Positions 6,093 through 62,826 of a stretch of 64,000 bases of DNA are shown here, piece by piece. Source of the DNA: a candidate division WWE3 bacterium RIFOXYC1_FULL_40_10 (GTDB lineage Bacteria; Patescibacteriota; WWE3; UBA101185; UBA10185); the NCBI GenBank assembly GCA_001773215.1, contig MEWB01000001.1:550099-614098 (forward strand), read 5' to 3'. How positions within the stretch are numbered: position 1 is the first letter of the stretch; each line of letters begins with the position of its first letter. The notes beneath the pieces were generated by a model, which saw nothing but the letters and a program-made list of their open reading frames with translations, was not told the origin of the DNA and searched no databases. A program made the position numbers and the translations under genes.

Positions 6093-7132
6093 TTTGTTTT
6101 TACGAAACCTTCTGCATTTCCAACTTTATGAACTTTCAACACTTTTGCTAAAAAATAACTTAACTCCTTCTTTCTCATAACTATCCTAAACAAATCATGG
6201 TCAGATACCGTCCTAATGCCCTGAATCCTTTTTCGCTTAATCAGTGTACTCTCAAGATTAGTTATATTCCAAAATATCGCCTGGTGGATCCACAAAAAAG
6301 GTTTGTAATCCCCTCTAAGCAATGAGTACCAAGCAAGCCCAAGCCATAAAAACAAGTGTATCGGCAGTATCCTGGCTAAACTCCCGCCCTCCAAATTCTT
6401 AATTAACGTTAATATATAGTTCTTTGTTCCATGAAACTTGGCATTATAATTGTTTTTGCTTTTTCCAAGTATCACTGTGCTTGTGCCAAATTCATGAAAA
6501 ACCACTGAAGCAGGAATATACACAGCTTTAAACCCCGCTAACCAGGATCTCCAACCCAGGTCAGTTTCTTCCACATATATAAAGTAATCTTTATCGAAAC
6601 CTTCGATCTTTTCGAAAGTCTCCTTTCGTATGAACATGCCCGCAGATTTAGCAGCCAATATAGGAACACTTTCGTTAAATTCACCATTATCTAGCTCCCC
6701 TGCCTTAACTCTTTGAACTAAAAACCCGTTTTGGCCTATATATTCCCCAACGTAGTCAAGTTTGTTACGTTCTTTCGACAAAATCAGCTTACATTGTACT
6801 ATGCCTGTATTAGGGTCTGAGTCTAGCGCTTTGGCTGCCTCATTTTCCCAATTTGGATCAACCAAAGTGTCGTTGTCCAAGAATCCCAAATATCTACCTT
6901 CACTAACCTCAACGCCTTTATTTCGAGCATACGCAGGGCCATAGTTTTTGTCCAAAGCCACCACTTTTATTTGCTTATATTTGTCTTTAAGAAAGTCAAC
7001 GGTTCCATCATCAGAACCATTATCGACTACAATTACTTCCAGATCAGTCGAGTTAGCCGAAAGAACTGAGTTAACGCATGCATCCACGTAGTTTTTCCCA
7101 TTGTACGTTACTATAATTACCGAGGATCTCAC
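6089..7132 (-). CDS. Glycosyltransferase family 2
   Basis: SSVIIVTYNGKNYVDACVNSV, VVDNGSDDGT and a DxD motif (FLDNDT). Confidence 0.7.
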   Translation of the reverse strand: MRSSVIIVTYNGKNYVDACVNSVLSANSTDLEVIVVDNGSDDGTVDFLKDKYKQIKVVALDKNYGPAYARNKGVEVSEGRYLGFLDNDTLVDPNWENEAAKALDSDPNTGIVQCKLILSKERNKLDYVGEYIGQNGFLVQRVKAGELDNGEFNESVPILAAKSAGMFIRKETFEKIEGFDKDYFIYVEETDLGWRSWLAGFKAVYIPASVVFHEFGTSTVILGKSKNNYNAKFHGTKNYILTLIKNLEGGSLARILPIHLFLWLGLAWYSLLRGDYKPFLWIHQAIFWNITNLESTLIKRKRIQGIRTVSDHDLFRIVMRKKELSYFLAKVLKVHKVGNAEGFVKTK

Positions 7133-8280
7133 TTCCCGATAGCCTCCCTATACCACTCCAGGTATATTCGGGCTGTGTTTTCAGGCGAACGCTCTTTAGC
7201 TTTTTTTAGTGTTGCCTGTTCTATCTGCTTAACCACCTCGGGATTCTCCGCTATATATTTGAACGCATCATGCCATTTATCGTTTTCAATCAAATAGCCG
7301 GTTTTCAAGTGATCTAAATCTTCAATAAAATGCCCTATTTTAGTGGCAATAACACATTTTCCATAACTTGCGGCATGGAACAAAGGCCCGCTTGACCCCA
7401 TAGATAGTATTGCCGGATTACAAACAGCATACGCCTTTTCATATAGGTCGTCCTGCTGTTCCATATTAATAAATCCCTTCATTTCTACTTTCCCCTTCAT
7501 CGCAGTCCCTTCTATCTGGTTCTTGATTTCGTCAAAAGCCTCCTCCTGCCCTTTTATAATGCCGCCAGCCAATATCAATCTAAAATCTGAATGCGGGTTG
7601 GCCGTTAAGTATTTTTGAAACCCATCCAGTAAGTAACCTAACCCTTTTCTTCTAGCCATATAACCAAAGTAGAAAAAATAATGTTCTTTAGGTAAATTTC
7701 GTAACCTCTTTTGAGGAATTGCTATTGGTATAACTTTTACTCTTTTAGCATCAACCCCATAATCCGTACTAATAATTTTTCGGGTAAGCTCTGTGTGAAC
7801 TATTTGTCTGCCCGAAAGCAGTGAAATAGATTTGTAAATATAATGAAAGGCTAATGAAACCATAAAAGGTTTAACGTACTTTGGGTTTTGATGAAATATT
7901 CTAATTAGCTCGTGATCAATTTGTTTTTTATAAACCGCAGCATGAACAGTGACAACCGTTTTAAATCCCATTATTTTTAACATGAGTAAAAGGAGTGGAA
8001 AAAACATAGCCGTAATCAATCCCCCATACATATTTAGCTCATGTTGCAGGTGTATCAAATCAGGTTTGTCGGCCAATACCTGCCTAAGTATTTCATAAAC
8101 ATACGATAGTGACTTCGACCAGACAAGTTTAATCTCCCCACACCCTTGAATTTCCAAATTTTTGGGATCCTTATCTGCATAAACGATTAGCTCAATACCA
8201 GGATTGTTGGCAAGCCCACTCGTAATTGATTGCGAATAATGACCAACAGGCAACATTCCGGATATAAATACTACTTTCAT
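7129..8280 (-). CDS. Glycosyltransferase family 1 (GT4-like)
   Basis: GT-B architecture. The C-terminal half has FGYMARRKGLGYL and an E-x7-E-like region. Confidence 0.6.
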   Translation of the reverse strand: MKVVFISGMLPVGHYSQSITSGLANNPGIELIVYADKDPKNLEIQGCGEIKLVWSKSLSYVYEILRQVLADKPDLIHLQHELNMYGGLITAMFFPLLLLMLKIMGFKTVVTVHAAVYKKQIDHELIRIFHQNPKYVKPFMVSLAFHYIYKSISLLSGRQIVHTELTRKIISTDYGVDAKRVKVIPIAIPQKRLRNLPKEHYFFYFGYMARRKGLGYLLDGFQKYLTANPHSDFRLILAGGIIKGQEEAFDEIKNQIEGTAMKGKVEMKGFINMEQQDDLYEKAYAVCNPAILSMGSSGPLFHAASYGKCVIATKIGHFIEDLDHLKTGYLIENDKWHDAFKYIAENPEVVKQIEQATLKKAKERSPENTARIYLEWYREAIGK

Positions 8281-11570: not shown

Positions 11571-12866
11571 TCAATCTCCTTCGAACTTAACTTGGGCATA
11601 GTATCTTAAACCATGTTCTCTAAGTACTTCTCCTCCTTTTAGGTCGGGCAAATCTACAACAAAGGCCAACTCTACAATCTCGGCACCTAGTTTCTTGAGT
11701 AGCCTCGCAGCTGCAAAGGAAGTTCCTCCTGTGGCTAAAAGATCGTCTACCAATAATACTTTTTGACCATACGAAATAGCGTCTCTGTGTACTTCAATAG
11801 TATCAGTTCCGTATTCTTTTTGGTAGGTTTCATACTCACATTCGGCAGGTAGTTTTCCCTTTTTTCGTATCGGAACAAAACCCACTCCAAGCTTATTGGC
11901 CAATGCACCCCCCAAAATGAAGCCTCTACTTTCGATGCCTGCTACAACATCTATGTCAATTTCCGAGTATCGGGTTACGAAATCGTTAATACAAATGTTA
12001 AAACTAACTTGATCCTTTAACAAGGTCGTAATATCCCTAAACATCACACCTTCTTTTGGCCAATTAGGAATTGTTCTTATCTTAGACTTAAGTCCACTTG
12101 TAGCTAACACCTCTACCATCGCTACTATAAGCTTTTTCACCCTTTCGGAATTAGCCTTCATGCGAGTAATAACCATTTCAAAATTGACCGGCTCCTCATT
12201 TTCTTTCCAACAGTCGTAATCGGTGGACATCGCGATCGACTGGTAGGGTATTCCCAATTCGTTAGCCAAAATCACCTCGGGACAGGTGGACATATTGATT
12301 ATGTCTGCCCCCAATTTCTGAAACATCCTACTCTCGGCCTTAGTAGAAAACCTAGGGCCTTCGATTGTCACTATCGTTACGTCTTTGTTATACGAATATC
12401 CAAGGTTCTCACAGATTTCACATAGTCGGCTGCGCATTCCACCGTCGAAGGGCTCCGACATAGGTGTATGTACAACACCCTCTTCGCAAAAAGTATTTGG
12501 TCTACTACGTGTAAAATCTATAAATTGATCGGGAAAAACAATATTTCCGGGCTTGATATCTTCTTTTAAGGAACCCACTGCTGTTGTTGCTAAAATATGA
12601 GTCACACCCAAATCTTTAAAGGCTTGAATATTTGCTCGATAGTTCACTTTCGAAGGTAAAATACCATGCTGCTTGCCATGACGAGAGATTATTGCCACAT
12701 CAACTCCGGAAAGCTTTCCAAGTGTTATGGGAGAGGAAGGAAAACCCCATTTAGTTGGTATTATCTTCTCTTCGTAGTGAGTAAGTAACCGGGGATCATC
12801 AAGACCAGACCCCCCGATAATTCCTATAAGCATAAAAGAATAGTAGTAGCAAATTAGGGGGAACAC
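11571..12866 (-). CDS. Fusion protein: MTA/purine nucleoside phosphorylase (MTAP/PNP family) + adenine phosphoribosyltransferase. The likely true start is the internal ATG near 12833 (MLIGIIGGSG).
   Basis: N-terminal half matches MTAP (IGIIGGSGLDD ... ISRHGKQH ... MSTCPEV). C-terminal half matches APRT nearly end to end (PKEGVMFRDITTLL ... GIESRGF ... VLLVDDLLATGGT). Confidence 0.75.
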   Translation of the reverse strand: MFPLICYYYSFMLIGIIGGSGLDDPRLLTHYEEKIIPTKWGFPSSPITLGKLSGVDVAIISRHGKQHGILPSKVNYRANIQAFKDLGVTHILATTAVGSLKEDIKPGNIVFPDQFIDFTRSRPNTFCEEGVVHTPMSEPFDGGMRSRLCEICENLGYSYNKDVTIVTIEGPRFSTKAESRMFQKLGADIINMSTCPEVILANELGIPYQSIAMSTDYDCWKENEEPVNFEMVITRMKANSERVKKLIVAMVEVLATSGLKSKIRTIPNWPKEGVMFRDITTLLKDQVSFNICINDFVTRYSEIDIDVVAGIESRGFILGGALANKLGVGFVPIRKKGKLPAECEYETYQKEYGTDTIEVHRDAISYGQKVLLVDDLLATGGTSFAAARLLKKLGAEIVELAFVVDLPDLKGGEVLREHGLRYYAQVKFEGD

Positions 12867-13294
12867 AAGGGGAAAGATGATTTAAGATCGAACTTATGCG
12901 TTATTCTGTGATACAAAAAGTAAGCGTACAACCCTGGAGAATTTGTAAACTGGTCAATTAGCAAATGAACCGCCAGAGATAAACCTACGGAATAGAATAG
13001 TAGACTGGAATTAGCTACTAACCCTAAAGAAACAATCCCAAAAGCCAATTCCCAGGAATGGAGGAAAATGTATGCTTTTTGAGATTCTTTAAAATAATTC
13101 CCCGAGAAAAATCCCTTTAGTGTTACTCTCGATCCTCTGAATATCAAGTAATCAATCAAATGGTCTCCGTCGATAAAAAAACCGGCTACCAAGGACAATA
13201 CAAGGGGTAAATAGGATCCTGATAACAAAGAAAGCGAACCCCCCACAAGCAAGCTGGCACTCAAATGCATTATCTCAGTGTAAACCAGAGACAT
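12854..13294 (-). CDS. Small polytopic membrane protein with His/Asp motifs (FIDGDHLIDY, HLLIDQ). Possibly a membrane-bound metal-dependent hydrolase-like (DUF457/YdjM-like) protein.
   Basis: About 4 TM helices and conserved H/D clusters. The family assignment is uncertain. Confidence 0.35.
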   Translation of the reverse strand: MSLVYTEIMHLSASLLVGGSLSLLSGSYLPLVLSLVAGFFIDGDHLIDYLIFRGSRVTLKGFFSGNYFKESQKAYIFLHSWELAFGIVSLGLVANSSLLFYSVGLSLAVHLLIDQFTNSPGLYAYFLYHRITHKFDLKSSFPLCSP

Positions 13295-13300
13295 TACTTA

Positions 13301-14908
13301 CTAAGCCTTAAGCCTCTTGGGCAATAAATGGCGGAATAAACTCTTTGACGCATTAATCCAAAATTTGGGATGATACCAACTTACCTTTGTCTGCTCCTCA
13401 TCGAAGTCGAGTAAGTGTCCAAGTATCCTCTTAGCGGCCATAAGATAGAACCTGATGTCAGCCCAGGTTCTGATACTTAAGATTTTTCGCATAATATATT
13501 GGGGCGTAAAAAACGACGAGTAGAGTGACTGAGTAAGCTCATACAATCTCTCCGTAGAAAAATGGGTCTTCATAACCGGCGCCCTCATATCAAACGCTTC
13601 GTAGTCAAAAGGGTCTACGGTTAACCACCCTTTTTCGACACATTCCTTATATAGTGGCGTACCTGGGTAGGGAATTGTGATAGTGGCTTGCATAGTATCA
13701 ACGTAACCTTTTTTGAACAGCTCTCGTGCCAAATTAATGGTGTTTTGAGCCATCTCTTCGGTTTCCCACGGATAACCTAACATAATTGTAAGATGAGGCT
13801 CTAATCCGCCTTTTTTCGCCATTTGGACTCCTTTTTCAATCTCCTCAATCTTTAAACCCTTATCAAGCTTGTCCAGAGTCTCTTGATTACCTGATTCCAT
13901 ACCGTACAAAATGAACCTAAAATTCGCCTTACCCATTAAATCGTAGTATTCCTGGTTTAAGGCATTTAAACGCATGTTACAGGAATAAACCACTTTTTTA
14001 CTGTAACCTGATTCAATCAACAGCTCACAAAACTTTTTGAGAGGAGGCCCCACAAAAAGTGTTCCGGCATCATCGAAAATTTCTTTTACCCCATACTTAT
14101 CTACTACATACTTCACCTCGGCAAATAACCTTTCGGGCGAAAAGCGGCGATAAGAGCCCCTTGGATTAATTGTGTGATCCCAAACACAAAAAGTACATCT
14201 ATTCCACCAGCAATCCCTGCCTGAATACATGTAAGTAGCTGGAGTATACTTATAATTTCCGTTCTCATAAGCATACAATTCCCATTTGGTTATGTCTCTA
14301 TCAACAAAGGGCAGGTCATCAAGTTTATGTGTAAGCTTTGCCGGGCCGGTCCACCAATATGTATCCTCATGTTTTGTCTGCTCTGGTAAAATGTGTTGCT
14401 TTCCCGTGTCTCTCCCCCAAATTCCCGATGGTACTTCTTTACCCTGAGATATAGAATCAGCCAAGTCCGAGAGTAAAAAGTCATAGTCACCACCCAAAAT
14501 AATATAATCTACTTTACATGCCCCCAAAGTCTCTTTTGGCAAATAGGTAACGTGATCACCTACCATTACAATATCCATACTTTTGAACTGCTCTTTAAGC
14601 TCATTCACAAGCTTCCAATGCATTTTTACAACAGGGGCCTTAGTTTCCAGTAACAATAAGTCAGGCTGTTCTTTTTCGAGTTGAGCCAACCATTCTTTGT
14701 AACTTTTCTTTTCTGCAATACCATCCATCCAGACCACCTCGTACCCCCGTTCTTTTGCTATGGTAGCAGCATAAGCAGGGATCATTGGGTATATATATGT
14801 AGGTGCATTGAAAAACTGAAACTGGCGATTTTGCGATAGCAACGGTACACCCTTGTCTGTCTCAATGGGCGGATAGGCGATGACAATTTTAAAAGTATTT
14901 TTTTGCAT
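13301..14908 (-). CDS. B12-binding domain radical SAM protein (module 2). Start moved to the ATG at 14908 (MQKNTFKIVIAYPP); the ORF-track start at 14947 is a TTG.
   Basis: Same architecture as 136..1593, with an N-terminal B12-binding fold (IVMVGDH, YIILGG). The Cys motif is CX4CX2C (RDCWWNRCTFCVW), not CX3CX2C. The N-terminus aligns with rSAM1 when the start is at 14908. Confidence 0.7.
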   Translation of the reverse strand: MQKNTFKIVIAYPPIETDKGVPLLSQNRQFQFFNAPTYIYPMIPAYAATIAKERGYEVVWMDGIAEKKSYKEWLAQLEKEQPDLLLLETKAPVVKMHWKLVNELKEQFKSMDIVMVGDHVTYLPKETLGACKVDYIILGGDYDFLLSDLADSISQGKEVPSGIWGRDTGKQHILPEQTKHEDTYWWTGPAKLTHKLDDLPFVDRDITKWELYAYENGNYKYTPATYMYSGRDCWWNRCTFCVWDHTINPRGSYRRFSPERLFAEVKYVVDKYGVKEIFDDAGTLFVGPPLKKFCELLIESGYSKKVVYSCNMRLNALNQEYYDLMGKANFRFILYGMESGNQETLDKLDKGLKIEEIEKGVQMAKKGGLEPHLTIMLGYPWETEEMAQNTINLARELFKKGYVDTMQATITIPYPGTPLYKECVEKGWLTVDPFDYEAFDMRAPVMKTHFSTERLYELTQSLYSSFFTPQYIMRKILSIRTWADIRFYLMAAKRILGHLLDFDEEQTKVSWYHPKFWINASKSLFRHLLPKRLKA

Positions 14909-15010
14909 ATTAGTAATAGTACTACATATAGATGTATATGGATACAATGGAATTTAGACCTATAAGATGATAAACTCCTGTTACATCAAAACTAAACAAA
15001 GGAGTTGAAC

Positions 15011-15325
15011 ATGCTTTATCCAGCGACAGCTAAAACAATTGTTGAACAAGCTTTACGTGCGTGGTTAAAGGGGCGCGATCTGTTGTGTGACATAATTCTT
15101 GACGAAAAGTTGAGTGTTGACCGCCAGAAGGACAAACCGGCGATATATTTCTTCGAGATCACATTTCTTACTAATGACCAGGGAGTGCAAAACGCACGAA
15201 AGTGCCAGATTTGGATTGTCCAAGAGCCCAATGGTCCTACTCATGGAAGTTGTATAATGCTTCGAGACCAAGCGACTTACGAAACCAAATTTCAATATTG
15301 GAACGAGGAAATCGTTTTACTGTAA
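15011..15325 (+). CDS. Hypothetical small protein, paralog 1 of 3 (unknown family)
   Basis: SD AAAGGAG 6 nt upstream of ATG 15011; the ORF-track start 15005 is a TTG. It shares the motifs xAWLKx ... aromatic beta-strand ... QIxIV-E-NG with the next two ORFs. Confidence 0.6.
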   Translation: MLYPATAKTIVEQALRAWLKGRDLLCDIILDEKLSVDRQKDKPAIYFFEITFLTNDQGVQNARKCQIWIVQEPNGPTHGSCIMLRDQATYETKFQYWNEEIVLL

Positions 15326-15337
15326 AGAGGCCGCCAA

Positions 15338-15706
15338 ATGGACAGAGTTATTTCACTAGAGGATCTCGAAAACGAAGTCAGTAAGGCATTCTTGTCGTGG
15401 GCTAAGCAATGCCCTTTGCAAATTATACAAATAAAGTTTGCACACCCTGAGATGGTGGCTGTCAAAAAGGAAGGCAATAGGTACACCGCTTTCTTTCATA
15501 TCCACTTTCATGCCAATGTTATGGGCAAGGAAAGTGACATCTTTGATGTTCAGATCGCTGTAGAAACCAATGGTGTTGTAACTAACACTTTGATCTTTTT
15601 GGCTGAGGGTCCCATCAGTGGAACCGCTTACCTGTTGAACTCAAGTAATGCATATGGAAAAAGATTCAAGATCGTGGAAAACTCCATTGAGTTTACCGAT
15701 ATCTAG
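15338..15706 (+). CDS. Hypothetical small protein, paralog 2 of 3
   Basis: SD AAAGAGG 7 nt upstream. Contains LSWAKQ ... YTAFFHIHFHANVMGKESDIFDVQIAVETNG. It starts 12 nt after the paralog-1 stop. Confidence 0.6.
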   Translation: MDRVISLEDLENEVSKAFLSWAKQCPLQIIQIKFAHPEMVAVKKEGNRYTAFFHIHFHANVMGKESDIFDVQIAVETNGVVTNTLIFLAEGPISGTAYLLNSSNAYGKRFKIVENSIEFTDI

Positions 15707-15714
15707 TGGCTAAT

Positions 15715-15765
15715 GAAACCCATCTCTCATAAAGGTGGGTTCATGTTTGATAAATGACCTATAAT
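15715..15765 (+). promoter_or_regulatory. Weak hairpin (gaaaccca...tgggttc) followed by a perfect TATAAT hexamer at 15760..15765. A possible partial terminator plus internal promoter for paralog 3.
   Basis: The stem is 6-7 bp with a bulge, and TATAAT lies about 40 nt upstream of ATG 15806. I found no convincing -35 (TTGATA is only 7 nt away). Confidence 0.2.
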
Positions 15766-15805
15766 ATAGTATGCTGTTATAACGTCATAAAAAAAAGGAG
15801 CTAGA

Positions 15806-16159
15806 ATGTCGCAGGACAAAAACTACTGGATGGAAGTTTGTAGGAATATAGTTAACGTAATTATTCAAGAGTGGCTGAAAAAAAACTACCCCGGAATCGA
15901 TTTTACAAAACTTTGCACAAACAGAGACACCTCCAAAAATAACAATACAAACACTCACATAAAGTGCTGGTTTGACTGTTTGGCCGAGTATGGGCATGGA
16001 TTGAATGCCCAGGTAGAGATCGGTATTGAAGTTTTGGTGCACGCAGAGAACGAGTGGGAAATTAGGGGCCAATTGACAGAAAGGCGAGTGAATTGCCCTA
16101 TAGCACTTGAATTTCTGGTCACAAGCTATTCTCCTAGAGCTACTGTGGTTTGGTTATAG
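15806..16159 (+). CDS. Hypothetical small protein, paralog 3 of 3 (Asn-rich insert KNNNTNTH)
   Basis: SD AAAGGAG 5 nt upstream. Contains QEWLKKN ... HIKCWFDCLAEYGHGLNAQVEIGIEVLVHAENE. It is preceded by a 99-nt spacer with a hairpin and a TATAAT hexamer. Confidence 0.6.
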   Translation: MSQDKNYWMEVCRNIVNVIIQEWLKKNYPGIDFTKLCTNRDTSKNNNTNTHIKCWFDCLAEYGHGLNAQVEIGIEVLVHAENEWEIRGQLTERRVNCPIALEFLVTSYSPRATVVWL

Positions 16160-16170
16160 TAAGAACTAAA

Positions 16171-16209
16171 GGGCGTGCTATTTTTAAAATAAAGCGCGCC
16201 TTTTTTATT
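16171..16209 (+). terminator. Rho-independent terminator between convergent genes, likely bidirectional
   Basis: Stem GGCGTGC / GCGCGCC (7 bp, one G-U) with an AT loop, followed by TTTTTTATT on the plus strand. An A-tract precedes the stem, so the minus-strand reading also gets a hairpin + U-rich tail. It overlaps the ferredoxin stop. Confidence 0.55.
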
Positions 16210-16465
16210 CCAGGGGCCAAAGTTGTTTACCATCCATATCCTCAACTATGATCGCCATAGTCGGACAAGACTTAGCGGCCATGACAATCTTCTCCAACTC
16301 ATCCCAAATCCCTTCCTTAACATATGATATACCGTCCTCATCCAAATCAAACGTGTCTGCGGCATACACAATACAGGTTCCTGCGCTAATACACTTTTCC
16401 TTAATTACCTTGATCCTCACTTTTTGATCAGAGCTTATTGCAAATTCATTTTGTCCTTTTTTCAT
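16205..16465 (-). CDS. Small single-cluster ferredoxin (paralog of 1590..1808)
   Basis: CISAGTCIVYAADTF ... AKSCPTMAI over 86 aa. It is the last gene of the upstream minus-strand unit. Confidence 0.65.
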   Translation of the reverse strand: MKKGQNEFAISSDQKVRIKVIKEKCISAGTCIVYAADTFDLDEDGISYVKEGIWDELEKIVMAAKSCPTMAIIVEDMDGKQLWPLE

Positions 16466-16468
16466 ATT

Positions 16469-17482
16469 TTACCCTTCTGAATAATTACCTGAACTATCTA
16501 CGGCTTTGCTGATATATTTTGGTCTTTTTAAAAATCCAACCATAAAGTAAAACCCATACGTAATATGTGTCAAAAAAATCCCCCAATACACAAACCCGAA
16601 TGCTCTTATGCTTCTTTCTTTTATTGCCACTCTTGTTGCCTCCAATCCAACTGCGGTAAAATAAACAAATAGCCCACCGAAATAAAACTTCCATAGTACA
16701 GGTAGTAGCATCGCCACCAGTGGACCCATCCACAATCCCAGCACAAAGAAAGAAGGCACAAAAAAAGCCGGTAGGCGGGAGGTCTCGGGGAAAATACGCG
16801 CAAACTGTCCTCTGTGCCTCCCATACCTTGAAATTTGCTTTAAGTGGGGCTTGAACATCTCTCTGCGATGGTGATACACAATGGGCCTTGGATCGTACAC
16901 AAAATCTTGTTTAAAAAACTTAACCAAATCCAAGCATAGTTTGGTATCTTCACCTGGCCAAAATTCCTGCAAAAACCCTCCAACCTTCTCAAATGCATCT
17001 TTCTTTACGAATAAATTCACAGTCGGAAAGTCGTTTATTTTTCTGGGAGGGAACGGCAGATGGCGATAAACAAACTTAGCGCTGGTTAAATAGGACTCTA
17101 AAACTCTGCCCGACATCTTTTCCTTAAAGCAATCATCACCGGGCGTCATCGCAGGGCCTCCTAATGCGTATGTGCCGGTTTCCTCAAAGACTTGTTCTGC
17201 CATACTAAGCCAATTTTTTGCCGGGTAAGCGTCATCGTCGATAAATGCTAATATTTCTCCTTTTGCATATAGGGAACCTAAATTTCTCTTCCCTGCGGGA
17301 TGGGAAGTCCCTGTTGGAATCACACTAAAGCGGGGGTCATTCTCAAAGTCGAATTCTTCCGGTTCATCAGGCAAAATGATAACTTCAAAGTCCTTATAAT
17401 CCAGCTGCTTCAGTTCCTCAATATTCCTTTTTAAAAAGTCGTTTATATACCTAACCGGGATAATTATGCTGTATTTTATCAT
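16469..17482 (-). CDS. Glycosyltransferase family 2 with C-terminal TM helices
   Basis: YSIIIPVRY, IDDDAYP, and a C-terminal hydrophobic region. Confidence 0.65.
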   Translation of the reverse strand: MIKYSIIIPVRYINDFLKRNIEELKQLDYKDFEVIILPDEPEEFDFENDPRFSVIPTGTSHPAGKRNLGSLYAKGEILAFIDDDAYPAKNWLSMAEQVFEETGTYALGGPAMTPGDDCFKEKMSGRVLESYLTSAKFVYRHLPFPPRKINDFPTVNLFVKKDAFEKVGGFLQEFWPGEDTKLCLDLVKFFKQDFVYDPRPIVYHHRREMFKPHLKQISRYGRHRGQFARIFPETSRLPAFFVPSFFVLGLWMGPLVAMLLPVLWKFYFGGLFVYFTAVGLEATRVAIKERSIRAFGFVYWGIFLTHITYGFYFMVGFLKRPKYISKAVDSSGNYSEG

Positions 17483-37619: not shown

Positions 37620-37885
37620 AAAAGTATGGCTACAAACAATAACAGAAAGGCAAAAGTGCCAACGAGCGTATATTCTAAACCAATTTCAAAATTTAAGCGA
37701 GACTCTTTTTTGTGATGGATAATGCCCATTATCGAATAAAGGGCGCACCCTGCAAAGGAAAGTATTAGAATAGCGGGCTTGTTGTGTTGAAATATTAGTA
37801 ACAGCGAAAGAATTAGCAGTACGCTTATTACAATTAGCATGTAAATTCCGGTGTGCCCTTTTTGGTTAGCCATATTAAAGTACAA
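37616..37885 (-). CDS. Small 2-3 TM membrane protein (DUF2304-like), the typical partner of the preceding GT2
   Basis: 89 aa, hydrophobic, and translationally coupled. Confidence 0.4.
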   Translation of the reverse strand: MYFNMANQKGHTGIYMLIVISVLLILSLLLIFQHNKPAILILSFAGCALYSIMGIIHHKKESRLNFEIGLEYTLVGTFAFLLLFVAILL

Positions 37886-38813
37886 TCCCCGGCGAAATAA
37901 TAAACCAAATACTAATTAGAACTGCAACAAATAATGTTAAATGAAAAACTGAGTGTCCATTGAACTTAAGTATTCCTTTCCTTCGGGAATACCAAATATC
38001 CAAAACTAATAATGCAGTGATAAATGCGCCTAAGAAAGTTCCAAGGGTTCTGATTGCCGAGGGTAGGTCGATAAGTAGGTTAGACGCTGGGACTGGTTCG
38101 GGTACAACAACCTGCTGGATATCGTTCTCCGACTGAACGCTGGGAGCAACTTGCGTCGAATTATCAAGCTTACTCAGTAAACCCTCCTGGTCATCAATTT
38201 TCGCAATGCGAGCAGGATTCCTTGGTCTTCCAAACATCTGAACCACTAAAGTAGTTTCATAGCCGTCCAACACTCCGTTCACCACTGCGAACCCTATTTC
38301 ATCATAATTTGGGCTTAGTAAATTACTCCTGTGGGAAGGGGAGTTATACCAAGCAGACACAACATCGCCAGACTGGCTAAAGTTTTTGGCTAAATTTTCT
38401 CCTGCATACACATAGTCGTAGCCCTCAGCTAATATAAAAGCCCACGGCTCTACTCCATCGGGGGAGATATGCGCCCAATAGCTTTTTTCAAACATATGGT
38501 GTGCCTTTTTTTCAGCTGCAGCAGATAAAGTAGCGCTCAAAACTAACGCCTTTTGGCCACTTTTTGCACGGGTACTATTTGTACTTTCGAGTAAGTCTCT
38601 GATAGAAATATCCGATGCGTAGCCTAAAACACCAGGAATGAACACAGGTAATATTCGAAATAGGAAAGCTATTAGTAAAATCAATATGCAGTACACTGCA
38701 AAGGCTTTATTGGACAACAATGTTGCTCTTTTATTTTCAATAGGGTGGGGAAGAAACTGATATTTATCTATTGCCTTGGATTGATTTCTCCAGTTTTTTA
38801 CTAGTGCTATCAT
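37875..38813 (-). CDS. Membrane-anchored CAP / SCP / PR-1-like (YkwD-type) domain protein
   Basis: HHMFEKSYWAHISPDG ... GENLA ... AWYNSPSHRSNLLSPNYDEIGFAV is a CAP domain. It has an N-terminal TM helix and C-terminal TM helices. Confidence 0.6.
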   Translation of the reverse strand: MIALVKNWRNQSKAIDKYQFLPHPIENKRATLLSNKAFAVYCILILLIAFLFRILPVFIPGVLGYASDISIRDLLESTNSTRAKSGQKALVLSATLSAAAEKKAHHMFEKSYWAHISPDGVEPWAFILAEGYDYVYAGENLAKNFSQSGDVVSAWYNSPSHRSNLLSPNYDEIGFAVVNGVLDGYETTLVVQMFGRPRNPARIAKIDDQEGLLSKLDNSTQVAPSVQSENDIQQVVVPEPVPASNLLIDLPSAIRTLGTFLGAFITALLVLDIWYSRRKGILKFNGHSVFHLTLFVAVLISIWFIISPGIVL

Positions 38814-44828: not shown

Positions 44829-45011
44829 TTATTTTTCTCTTAAAATCGTATTGATACGGGCAATATCTCTTTTAAAGAATCGCATCTTTGTAACATTTTT
44901 TTCCTTGCCTTGCAAAGTATTAATCATCAAAGTTTTAATATCAGCTTTGATTTTATCTATCTGCTCCAAAAGTTCTTGTTTAGTTTTAGTTCTTAATTCC
45001 TTTTTATCCAT
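44829..45011 (-). CDS. rpmC: Ribosomal protein L29
   Basis: MDKKELRTKTKQELLEQI. Confidence 0.85.
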   Translation of the reverse strand: MDKKELRTKTKQELLEQIDKIKADIKTLMINTLQGKEKNVTKMRFFKRDIARINTILREK

Positions 45012-45012
45012 A

Positions 45013-45420
45013 CTAGGCTTTTATAATAAATTTCGTTCTCAAAGGCAATTTTGCTGCCGCTTTCCCCAACGCTCTTCTAGCTATCTCATCAGTAACACCC
45101 GACATCTCAAAAAGCACTTTACCAGGCTTAATTACTGCCGCATAGTGATCGGTAGGTGCTTTTCCTGAACCCATTCTTGTTTCAGGAGGCTTCTTTGCGA
45201 TTGGTTTGTCAGGAAAAACCCTGATCCAGATTTTTCCACCTCTCTTAGTTTCATGTACTATTTGTTTTCTTGCGGCCTCTAATTGACGGGAAGTCAACAA
45301 ACCTCGCTCAATGGACTTAATTGCATATTCTCCAAATGAAATTGTAGAACCTCTTACTGCAATCCCCCTGTTATTACCTCTCTGTTGTTTTCTAAATTTA
45401 ACTTTCTTAGGAAGCAACAT
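45013..45420 (-). CDS. rplP: Ribosomal protein L16
   Basis: [15 protein letters not shown]. Confidence 0.9.
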
Positions 45421-61413: not shown

Positions 61414-62826
61414 ATGCTAAAAACCCTAAAAAGCAACCTTCCATTTTTGGTATTGGCAGTATTCATTTCGTTTACGGCATATTTTAACAGTTTATCAGGC
61501 GAATTTGTTAGCGCGGATGACGAACCGGGAATAGTAAATAACTCTTCGTTAACAAGTGATAGCATACTTCTACACAAAAACATTCAACAAACCATAAACA
61601 GTGTTATTGTAAAAACCTTCGGAATAAAACCTGCTCCTTTCCATGTGCTGTCCCTAACTCTTCATTTAATTAATATTATTTTGGTGTTTGCTTTAACAAA
61701 AGAGCTTATTTCAACACGTATTTCCGCCATTACAACGTTACTCTTTGCCTTACATCCCATAAATACCGAAGCAGTTACATGGATTTCTGCATCCGGATAC
61801 TTATTAAGGAATATATTTCTGTTTTCAACGGCTTACCTATTTACTAGGTATATTAAAGAAAAAAACATCAAGTTCTACATTGGTAGTGTTTCTGTCTACC
61901 TGCTCGGACTATTTACAACGAAAGATCCCTGGATTCTTACTACTCTACCTATTTTAGGTATAATCGACTACTTTTTTCTATCTGCCAAGCACCCCAGGAT
62001 GCAAATAAATGCTGTCTACAAGTATTTGCCCTTTATAACCTCAACTTTTATTTTCATCCTTATAATTATATTTCCTCAATATAGAAACAGAGTTGAAGTG
62101 TTGTCAATCGATACTCAAAGCGTAACTCCTGTAATAAATAGGGCGCCTTATATTCTGTTTAAAACAGCGGAATTGCTAATAATGCCCATTAACCTAACTA
62201 TTTACCATGATAATAGTCAGATTTCTTATGGTGACTACCAATGGATGGTGGCCATTTCACTAATTTGGTTGCTAATAGTTCTAAGATATTGGCAAAAGAA
62301 TAGAACCGTAACAGGGCTGTTATTCGGAATCCCCTTGACTTTGTTGCCATCCTTTAGCCCTGTAATAATTGCTTGGTTTATAGCCGAAAGGTATCTATAC
62401 ACTGCTACATGGCTATTTTCTATAGGTGTGGCAATGCTACTACTAAAACTTAATAAATCTGTGTTTGCGGCAGTGCTTACTATTATATTGATTTTGTATT
62501 GGGTGCGGGTTGTTGATAGAAATCGAGATTTCGCTGATAATATAGCCCTGTGGGAAGCAACCCAAAAAACCAATCCCGTAAGCTACCGTGTATATAACAA
62601 TTTAGGAGACGCTTATCTTAGGGCTGGCGATACGCAAAAAGCAGTGGCGAGTTTTCAACACGCTATCGAGATTAACCCACAATACTCTGATGCCATTTAC
62701 AATTTAGGAAGATTATATGTAGACTTGGGACAAACTGAAGAAGCCCGGTTACTGCTAAATAGATCATTAGAAATTAACCCCAATTTAGTGCCGGCTACGG
62801 AACTACTGGAAAAAATAGGACGGTAA
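61414..62826 (+). CDS. GT-C fold membrane glycosyltransferase (PMT_2-like) with C-terminal TPR repeats (TMTC-like architecture)
   Basis: DE motif right after TM1 (FVSADDEPGIV) and about 11 TM helices. The C-terminal roughly 110 aa holds 3 TPR-like repeats (YNNLGDAYLRAGDTQKAVASFQHAIEINPQYSDAIYNLGRLY...). Confidence 0.6.
   Translation: MLKTLKSNLPFLVLAVFISFTAYFNSLSGEFVSADDEPGIVNNSSLTSDSILLHKNIQQTINSVIVKTFGIKPAPFHVLSLTLHLINIILVFALTKELISTRISAITTLLFALHPINTEAVTWISASGYLLRNIFLFSTAYLFTRYIKEKNIKFYIGSVSVYLLGLFTTKDPWILTTLPILGIIDYFFLSAKHPRMQINAVYKYLPFITSTFIFILIIIFPQYRNRVEVLSIDTQSVTPVINRAPYILFKTAELLIMPINLTIYHDNSQISYGDYQWMVAISLIWLLIVLRYWQKNRTVTGLLFGIPLTLLPSFSPVIIAWFIAERYLYTATWLFSIGVAMLLLKLNKSVFAAVLTIILILYWVRVVDRNRDFADNIALWEATQKTNPVSYRVYNNLGDAYLRAGDTQKAVASFQHAIEINPQYSDAIYNLGRLYVDLGQTEEARLLLNRSLEINPNLVPATELLEKIGR

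Follow-up and report, generated by a model that had tools for sequence, protein, structure and literature searches.

The described systems that come closest to the element reported here are ORFan accessory islets at operon boundaries: short sets of homolog-free genes, confined to one species, that show atypical codon usage or GC content at third codon positions (GC3), carry their own signals and sit in a spacer with variable cargo. The element also resembles the immunity-protein arrays of polymorphic toxins and the anti-defence arrays of phages, in which small soluble proteins of very low mutual similarity are encoded in tandem, again with signals of their own. It is a cassette of three plus-strand open reading frames (ORF1, ORF2 and ORF3) lying between a 4Fe-4S ferredoxin gene and a B12-binding radical SAM (rSAM) gene in candidate division WWE3 bacterium RIFOXYC1_FULL_40_10, an uncultured groundwater member of the candidate phyla radiation (CPR) whose longest contig measures 903,723 bp. 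We analysed the cassette within a 64,000-nucleotide stretch of this genome (hereafter the window; contig MEWB01000001.1, positions 550,099 to 614,098) and in related loci. The account that we regard as probable is structural and evolutionary: the cassette would be a species-restricted orphan islet of about 1.25 kb, inserted in reverse orientation at a permissive operon boundary.

The ferredoxin–rSAM junction and the orphan status of the cassette

Related loci were gathered with the rSAM protein as query, 65 loci coming from species-representative genomes and 80 from metagenomes (145 in all). The rSAM identity in these loci is mostly 60–76%, with values up to 83% on partial matches, and the metagenome scan returned nothing above about 82%. 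Among the 119 informative loci, which come from WWE3, Roizmanbacteria and CPR lineages related to them and are partly redundant between the two collections, the ferredoxin gene precedes the rSAM gene by at most 260 nt in 67, typically by 13–200 nt, and a GT2 gene stands directly upstream, without ferredoxin, in 22. The rSAM gene is therefore directly preceded by ferredoxin or GT2, with a gap of at most 260 nt, in 89 of the 119 loci; an insert of 0.6–3.4 kb is found at this place in 27, and neither gene lies upstream in the other 3. A second ferredoxin/rSAM pair within the window itself (1590–1808 and 136–1593) overlaps by 4 nt, as an earlier reading of the sequence alone (hereafter the sequence-only reading) had noted. 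No relative of ORF1, ORF2 or ORF3 was detected in any of the 145 loci (best tblastn E = 1.0).

The cassette is thus absent from orthologous loci in which its flanks are adjacent, and adjacency of the flanks is the ancestral arrangement. The sequence-only reading had argued for a secondary insertion between the ferredoxin and rSAM genes; the 89 loci with ferredoxin or GT2 directly before rSAM, 67 of them with exactly the two genes side by side, and the lack of the ORFs from all 145 make this interpretation well supported. In the proposed course of events, a segment of about 1.25 kb would have entered, in reverse orientation, the short spacer that runs from the stop codon of ferredoxin to the start codon of rSAM. 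About 40 nt adjoining the rSAM gene retain the TCTATATGTA motif common to the relatives' spacers, which would place the left edge of the insert near 14950. The cassette was found in the same context in 23 of the 23 contigs read, all from a single near-clonal species population, and the two loci fetched from it (L001 and L002) show no difference within the cassette.

Signatures of mobility were sought around the insert. There is no tRNA gene in the window, no recombinase ORF in the cassette and no convincing flanking repeat: the short AT-rich matches are at chance level, and no target-site duplication was seen. A 12-nt AT-rich inverted repeat (14886–14897 and 16179–16190; 11 of 12 positions complementary) brackets the cassette almost exactly, as in an invertible or mobile element. 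Since 1.8 kb hold 29 such pairs and this one extends partly into coding sequence, it was attributed to chance. An integron cassette was set aside as well, no attC-like core being visible by eye (no formal test was made). When compared by tblastx and blastn with the rest of the window and the 145 loci, the cassette DNA matched nothing in any frame, which discards a decayed or inverted copy of local DNA. A structured RNA was likewise rejected, the Rfam scan giving only a sub-threshold CrcZ match (16.4 bits, where the gathering score is 95).

The junction itself is a recurrent variable spot across WWE3/Microgenomates-type CPR, unrelated cargo being present in the 27 loci with an insert. This cargo comprises an FTR1 permease, an arginyl-tRNA synthetase, msrA/msrB-like genes, a GT1 gene, a pair of HTH_17 and PIN_3 genes and several proteins without a Pfam match, all mutually unrelated (examples, as locus:position, are L007:6165–7992, L021:5601–7986, L026:3068–5264, L044:3439–4379, L048:1712–5071 and L067:5473–7998). 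The HTH_17 and PIN_3 proteins (126 and 149 aa; L067:7122–7938) form a toxin–antitoxin-like pair in a WWE3-type genome. The L007 insert (GC content 0.433, vs 0.395 for the locus) encodes, at 6297–7876, two small proteins of 126 and 117 aa with N-terminal membrane anchors, along with a 253-aa ORF, none of which has a Pfam match; the by-eye impression that the two small proteins are paralogs was not borne out by BLASTP (E = 11).

The relatives' spacers are also enriched in sigma-70-like boxes near the rSAM start, such as TTGACA-N17-CATACT: 19% of 58 unique spacers score at least 10/12, vs 1% of coding-sequence controls (Fisher p = 5e-7; the control is a lenient one, the spacers being more AT-rich). 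Boxes of this kind (TTGACC or TTGACA, N17, TATAAT or CATACT) stand about 10–45 nt before the rSAM ATG in L018, L020, L022, L057, L043, L050, L062, L066 and others. Their closeness to the start codon suggests that the rSAM transcript of the relatives has a short leader or none and starts from an internal promoter within the glycan cluster to which the gene belongs. In the window itself (14868–14948, minus strand), the rSAM gene shows no motif resembling a Shine–Dalgarno sequence (SD) at positions −20 to −4 and no good sigma-70 match within 70 nt upstream (best score 7/12). The boxes of the relatives suggest that the junction was probably an operon boundary already before the insertion, and such a pre-existing boundary would explain why it tolerates insertions. 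In the scenario that we favour, the target was this permissive boundary, a spacer with promoter-like boxes in the relatives and often with lineage-specific cargo. The sequence-only reading had proposed instead that the cassette split off the 14 kb downstream as a transcription unit of its own; this idea is weakened, because the relatives already have promoter-like boxes in the ferredoxin–rSAM spacer.

Searches for homologs of the three proteins were negative throughout. Pfam, NCBIfam and PADLOC (0 hits) gave no family match for ORF1–3, the PDB no match, and PHROGs nothing usable (only matches at E = 0.006 and 0.049, with families whose function is unknown), in keeping with the statement of the sequence-only reading that no known domain can be recognised. 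In a word-indexed search of 5.8 billion protein clusters, each ORF matched only itself. An exhaustive HMMER search over 1.84 billion representatives, with ORF2 as query, returned ORF2 and one repeat artefact: P0004 (phmmer E = 3e-11), rejected as a homolog of ORF2, is a 2904-aa adhesin made of CnaB repeats, whose score is the sum of 23 weak repeat matches, the best single repeat reaching 9.4 bits with an independent E of 1e5. Note that this was the sole significant database match, and that it calls for caution whenever short queries are run against repeat proteins. No phage or plasmid relatives were found in three viral-contig scans or, for ORF1 and ORF3, by tblastn against phages and plasmids; a Foldseek search of BFVD was negative as well, and literature searches gave nothing specific to this genome or cluster. 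All three proteins are hence orphans, with no detectable homolog outside the species or its close lineage, the exhaustive search covering ORF2 only.

Genes, signals and composition of the cassette

The rSAM gene (13301–14908, minus strand; 535 aa from the ATG at 14908) is separated from the divergent ORF1 by an intergenic region at 14909–15010. ORF1 (A3K34_03055; 15011–15325, plus strand) encodes 104 aa and is preceded by the SD AAAGGAG (14998–15004), 6 nt from its ATG. ORF2 (A3K34_03060; 15338–15706, plus strand; 122 aa) follows after 12 nt, and its SD (AAAGAGG, 15324–15330, 7 nt from the ATG) overlaps the ORF1 stop codon. ORF3 (A3K34_03065; 15806–16159, plus strand; 117 aa) has the SD AAAGGAG at 15794–15800, 5 nt from its ATG. 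On the far side, the ferredoxin gene (16205–16465, minus strand; 86 aa, Fer4_13/Fer4_15) ends with a stop codon at 16205–16207. The three ORFs and their near-consensus SDs are therefore as the sequence-only reading had described them. Their products are small, slightly acidic and soluble, and none has a hydrophobic stretch of transmembrane level (Kyte–Doolittle maximum 1.23 in a 19-residue window), again in agreement with that reading.

A feature absent from the earlier reading is the kinship of the leaders of ORF1 and ORF3: over 50 nt they are related by a co-linear alignment (z = 4.1, p = 0.0025). Both open with the box GACCTATAAKAT, whose only exact occurrences in the 64 kb are those at 14957–14968 and 15756–15767. 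The first copy of this promoter/leader module has the box GACCTATAAGAT (14957–14968, plus strand; 54 nt before the ORF1 ATG) and the second the box GACCTATAATAT (15756–15767, plus strand; 50 nt before the ORF3 ATG); a −10-like TATAAG or TATAAT lies inside the shared box, TATAAG in GACCTATAAGAT. A hairpin with a weak T-tract, located 3' of ORF2 (15713–15744, plus strand; −13.4 kcal/mol, z = −1.6), is possibly a partial terminator. Given the related leaders, the shared box and this hairpin, the cassette looks like two transcription units, ORF1–ORF2 and ORF3, with putative promoters and a promoter/leader that would be either duplicated or commonly regulated. Each unit would consist of the box GACCTATAAKAT, a leader of about 40 nt and a strong SD, the first unit ending in the hairpin after ORF2 and the second in a strong terminator directly next to the stop codon of ferredoxin.

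This last element, the predicted intrinsic terminator of ORF3 (16168–16209, plus strand), has a 12-bp stem followed by T6AT2. Its hairpin (16168–16204) folds with −17.3 kcal/mol (z = −2.4), 5 of 200 shuffles folding equally well, and shows the GC-rich stem-loop and subsequent U-tract (U6AU2) of a Rho-independent terminator; a simple terminator scanner missed it, its loop being 13 nt long. The T6-A-T2 run shares positions with the stop codon of ferredoxin. In the minus-strand direction the same hairpin has less stability (−12.8 kcal/mol), and only a poor U-tract, UUUAGUU, comes after it, so that it would serve mainly as the terminator of ORF3. The sequence-only reading had seen here a hairpin with a T9 tract shared with the convergent ferredoxin gene: the hairpin is there, the tract is T6-A-T2 rather than T9, and the sharing is not retained. 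That the cassette has its own transcription signals holds for the two boxes, the hairpin and the terminator as sequence elements, the boxes being promoters by resemblance.

The composition of the cassette is ordinary in overall GC and atypical in part of its codon usage. Its GC content is 0.400, vs 0.393 for the window, and falls at the 60th percentile among same-sized windows; the raised GC suspected earlier from short samples therefore did not hold. GC3 alone is elevated: 0.43, 0.48 and 0.48 for ORF1, ORF2 and ORF3, vs 0.376 ± 0.029 (maximum 0.431) for 32 reference genes. The codon scores of ORF1 and ORF3 deviate as well, and that of ORF2 does not. The windowed check of GC and codon usage thus came out mixed, with normal GC and a typical ORF2 on one side and high GC3 with an atypical ORF1 and ORF3 on the other. 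Raised GC3 and atypical codon usage fit either a foreign origin or youth. If the former, the cassette would have been acquired horizontally from an unsampled source, an inference that draws on the raised GC3 and on the codon usage of ORF1 and ORF3.

The codon scores also bear on whether the ORFs are genes at all, and here they weigh against our account: ORF1 scores 0.049, below every reference gene piece, and ORF3 scores 0.103, below the 5th percentile of real genes, both values being within or close to the range that real genes give when read off frame (mean 0.012, 95th percentile 0.111). They favour the alternative in which ORF1 and ORF3, if not all three ORFs, are no functional protein genes but inserted or decaying DNA or very young de novo proto-genes. 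This alternative gains further from the lack of homologs anywhere, from the poor structure model of ORF3 (pLDDT 62.8) and from a population too uniform to reveal selection: the window, L001 and L002 are identical in the cassette, and two singleton amino-acid variants are all that is on record. We nevertheless consider it rather unlikely. Not one of 5000 shuffles of the 1296-nt segment yielded three ATG-initiated ORFs of at least 100 aa on one strand, and the three present here (at least 104 aa each) occupy 80% of it. All three have a near-consensus SD, a motif of this kind being found for only 23 of the 51 other genes of the window (45%), and the ORFs are exactly bracketed by promoter-like boxes and terminators. 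By codon usage, the annotated frame outscores the other five in each case, ORF2 has a typical score (0.206, vs 0.215 ± 0.056 for real genes) and a compact single-sequence model (pTM 0.61), and no remnant of another gene appeared in any frame by tblastx. The GC skew also counts for coding: the bin 15001–16000 (+0.091) is the sole positive one among 64 one-kb bins. Signals and ORF-length statistics thus speak for real genes in all three cases, and codon usage does so in that of ORF2.

Two further observations concern these points. The plus-strand gene at 61414–62826 shows no skew flip in its own bins. The starts of the three ORFs (15011, 15338 and 15806) share one frame (coordinate modulo 3 = 2), a 1-in-9 coincidence; a single disrupted gene was considered and rejected, there being five stop codons between the ORFs.

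Kinship of the three proteins and candidate roles

The sequence-only reading had presented the three proteins as divergent paralogs, and this was not confirmed. Pairwise BLASTP among them gives E values of 0.22, 8.9 and 15. ORF1 and ORF2 can be aligned co-linearly with 25% identity, and in semi-global alignment 0.18% of 5000 shuffles score as well as they do (p = 0.0018) and none of 36 comparisons with real small proteins of the window; among unrelated proteins of ribosomal type, 6.5% of pairs score as high. These two may possibly be diverged tandem duplicates. ORF3 stands apart: its score against ORF2 equals that of shuffles (z = 0) and that against ORF1 is marginal (p = 0.06). The mutual profile comparison, which the earlier reading had itself named as a check that could refute it, fails for ORF3 too, since hhalign aligns only 24 N-terminal columns of it to the ORF1+ORF2 profile (E = 0.22, probability 0.3%). 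The best three-way block, QALRAWLK / KAFLSWAK / VIIQEWLK, spans 8 residues at offsets 13, 16 and 18 and is nominally significant only (p = 0.012 with 2000 shuffles, 0.022 with triples of real proteins). Significant similarity among all three members is thus lacking, three-way paralogy is not established, and ORF3 is tied to ORF1 and ORF2 only by this short motif and the related leader.

This result also touches the role that had been suggested for the cassette, that of a tandem array of three fast-diverging paralogs whose function would be immunity, anti-defence or that of small regulatory adaptors. The attraction of that proposal is the general look of such arrays described above, and we now find it quite unlikely. 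Neither ORF1, ORF2 nor the profile of the two is significantly similar to ORF3, whose single-sequence AlphaFold model is all-helical, unlike that of ORF2 (the ORF3 model is of low confidence and was kept out of the fold search). PADLOC and PHROGs yielded nothing for these proteins, no relatives were found in phages, plasmids or viral contigs, and no viral structure matches. There is no toxin, nuclease, Rhs/CdiA-type or defence gene next to the cassette, whose neighbours (rSAM, ferredoxin and GT2) are conserved genes of the glycan pathway. Finally, the restriction of the proteins to one species is unlike immunity and anti-defence families, which are usually met with again in other genomes.

A structural clue comes from ORF2. 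Its single-sequence AlphaFold model (pLDDT 74.3, pTM 0.61) has a helix at residues 7–24 followed by eight beta strands; it is a generic helix-on-sheet fold, for which no significant structural match was found. Since this model, of moderate confidence, shows a helix packed on a curved antiparallel sheet, as in cystatin, NTF2 or VirB8-like proteins, we tentatively guess, with far more doubt than conviction, that the ORF products may be small cytoplasmic modules of a protein-binding or inhibitor type. A bolder version would have the trio be a very young, rapidly diversifying family of helix-and-sheet binders, born in this WWE3 lineage by duplication of a promoter–leader–gene unit or de novo, that modulates either the neighbouring ferredoxin/rSAM glycan-modification step or host and phage interactions that depend on surface glycans. 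We hold this to be very unlikely; were it true, the locus would offer a tractable case for studying how genes arise and neofunctionalise in a CPR genome of reduced size.

That the cassette is instead an ancestral part of the glycan operon, a divergent regulator or accessory factor of the ferredoxin/rSAM step since lost or diverged elsewhere, is highly improbable: the exact position between two functionally linked genes, the orientation divergent from the rSAM operon (an arrangement often seen with local regulators) and the overall GC equal to that of the host are met by strong contrary evidence from synteny (absence from 145 of 145 related loci, with a junction of 13–200 nt in most), by the second, overlapping ferredoxin/rSAM pair that lacks such genes, by the failure to detect a DNA-binding or regulatory domain, and by GC3 and codon usage that deviate from the host.

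The surrounding cluster and comparison with known systems

The cassette interrupts a glycan cluster on the minus strand (136–38,813) that encodes GT2 and GT1/GT4 glycosyltransferases, PMT_2 proteins, a flippase, a GDP-mannose dehydratase, a methyltransferase and sugar-nucleotide enzymes; ribosomal-protein genes and genes of rpoB/rpoC size come after it on the same strand. The sequence-only reading had set the cassette in such a cluster of minus-strand glycosylation genes and had called its ORFs the only plus-strand genes within 38 kb. Both statements are confirmed, the second even to 61.4 kb: ORF1–3 are the sole free-standing plus-strand ORFs of at least 100 aa before 61,414, with one partial exception at 44851–45168, and the remaining plus-strand ORFs of the window overlap longer ORFs on the minus strand. 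Downstream of rSAM, within the cluster, lie a 146-aa membrane protein (12854–13294; weak DUF6122 match, E = 0.016) and a fusion of PNP_UDP_1 with a phosphoribosyltransferase (11571–12866), and a gene of the CAP/SCP (cysteine-rich secretory protein) family closes the cluster at 37875–38813; the comparison with relatives for conservation covered the GT2, ferredoxin and rSAM genes. The GT2 gene beside ferredoxin (16469–17482) is called as two 167-aa halves in a strain assembly (L002:7132–8145); the one-base difference, at window position 16981, suggests a frameshift or nonsense variant at strain level, or a sequencing error.

If the account of an inserted orphan islet is right, the locus is a clean and well-bounded case of a streamlined CPR genome of about 0.9 Mb gaining and keeping orphan genes, and a single operon boundary in a conserved glycan cluster would be a recurrent landing site in WWE3 and Microgenomates lineages. 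For annotation, the cassette should not be counted in the glycosylation pathway, and it may be useful in studies of orphan-gene origin. No new mechanism is currently revealed by the locus, and as a lineage-specific orphan islet the cassette is nothing out of the ordinary.

Its place among known systems follows the same lines. Alpha+beta rolls of the cystatin, NTF2-like and VirB8-like type (the colicin M immunity protein Cmi, 2xgl; the periplasmic domains of TraM/VirB8) are among the nearest known systems. Toxin–antitoxin pairs as junction cargo (such as the toxin–antitoxin-like HTH_17 and PIN_3 genes of L067, at the same junction) resemble ORF1 and ORF2 in being two small, closely spaced genes; unlike them, ORF1 and ORF2 have no match among toxin and antitoxin families, and the weak similarity of the two to each other would be unexpected for a toxin and its antitoxin. 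From immunity and anti-defence arrays the cassette differs in having no toxin or defence neighbour, no PADLOC or PHROGs match, no phage relatives, no recurrence across genomes and, for ORF3, no established paralogy. The comparison with ORFan accessory islets holds for the short, homolog-free genes of one species, for the atypical codon usage and GC3, for the signals of its own and for the spacer with variable cargo. Unlike such islets, the cassette has no mobility genes, tRNA or flanking repeats, and it has a related promoter/leader common to two units; its host is also a reduced CPR genome, in which extra DNA is less expected.

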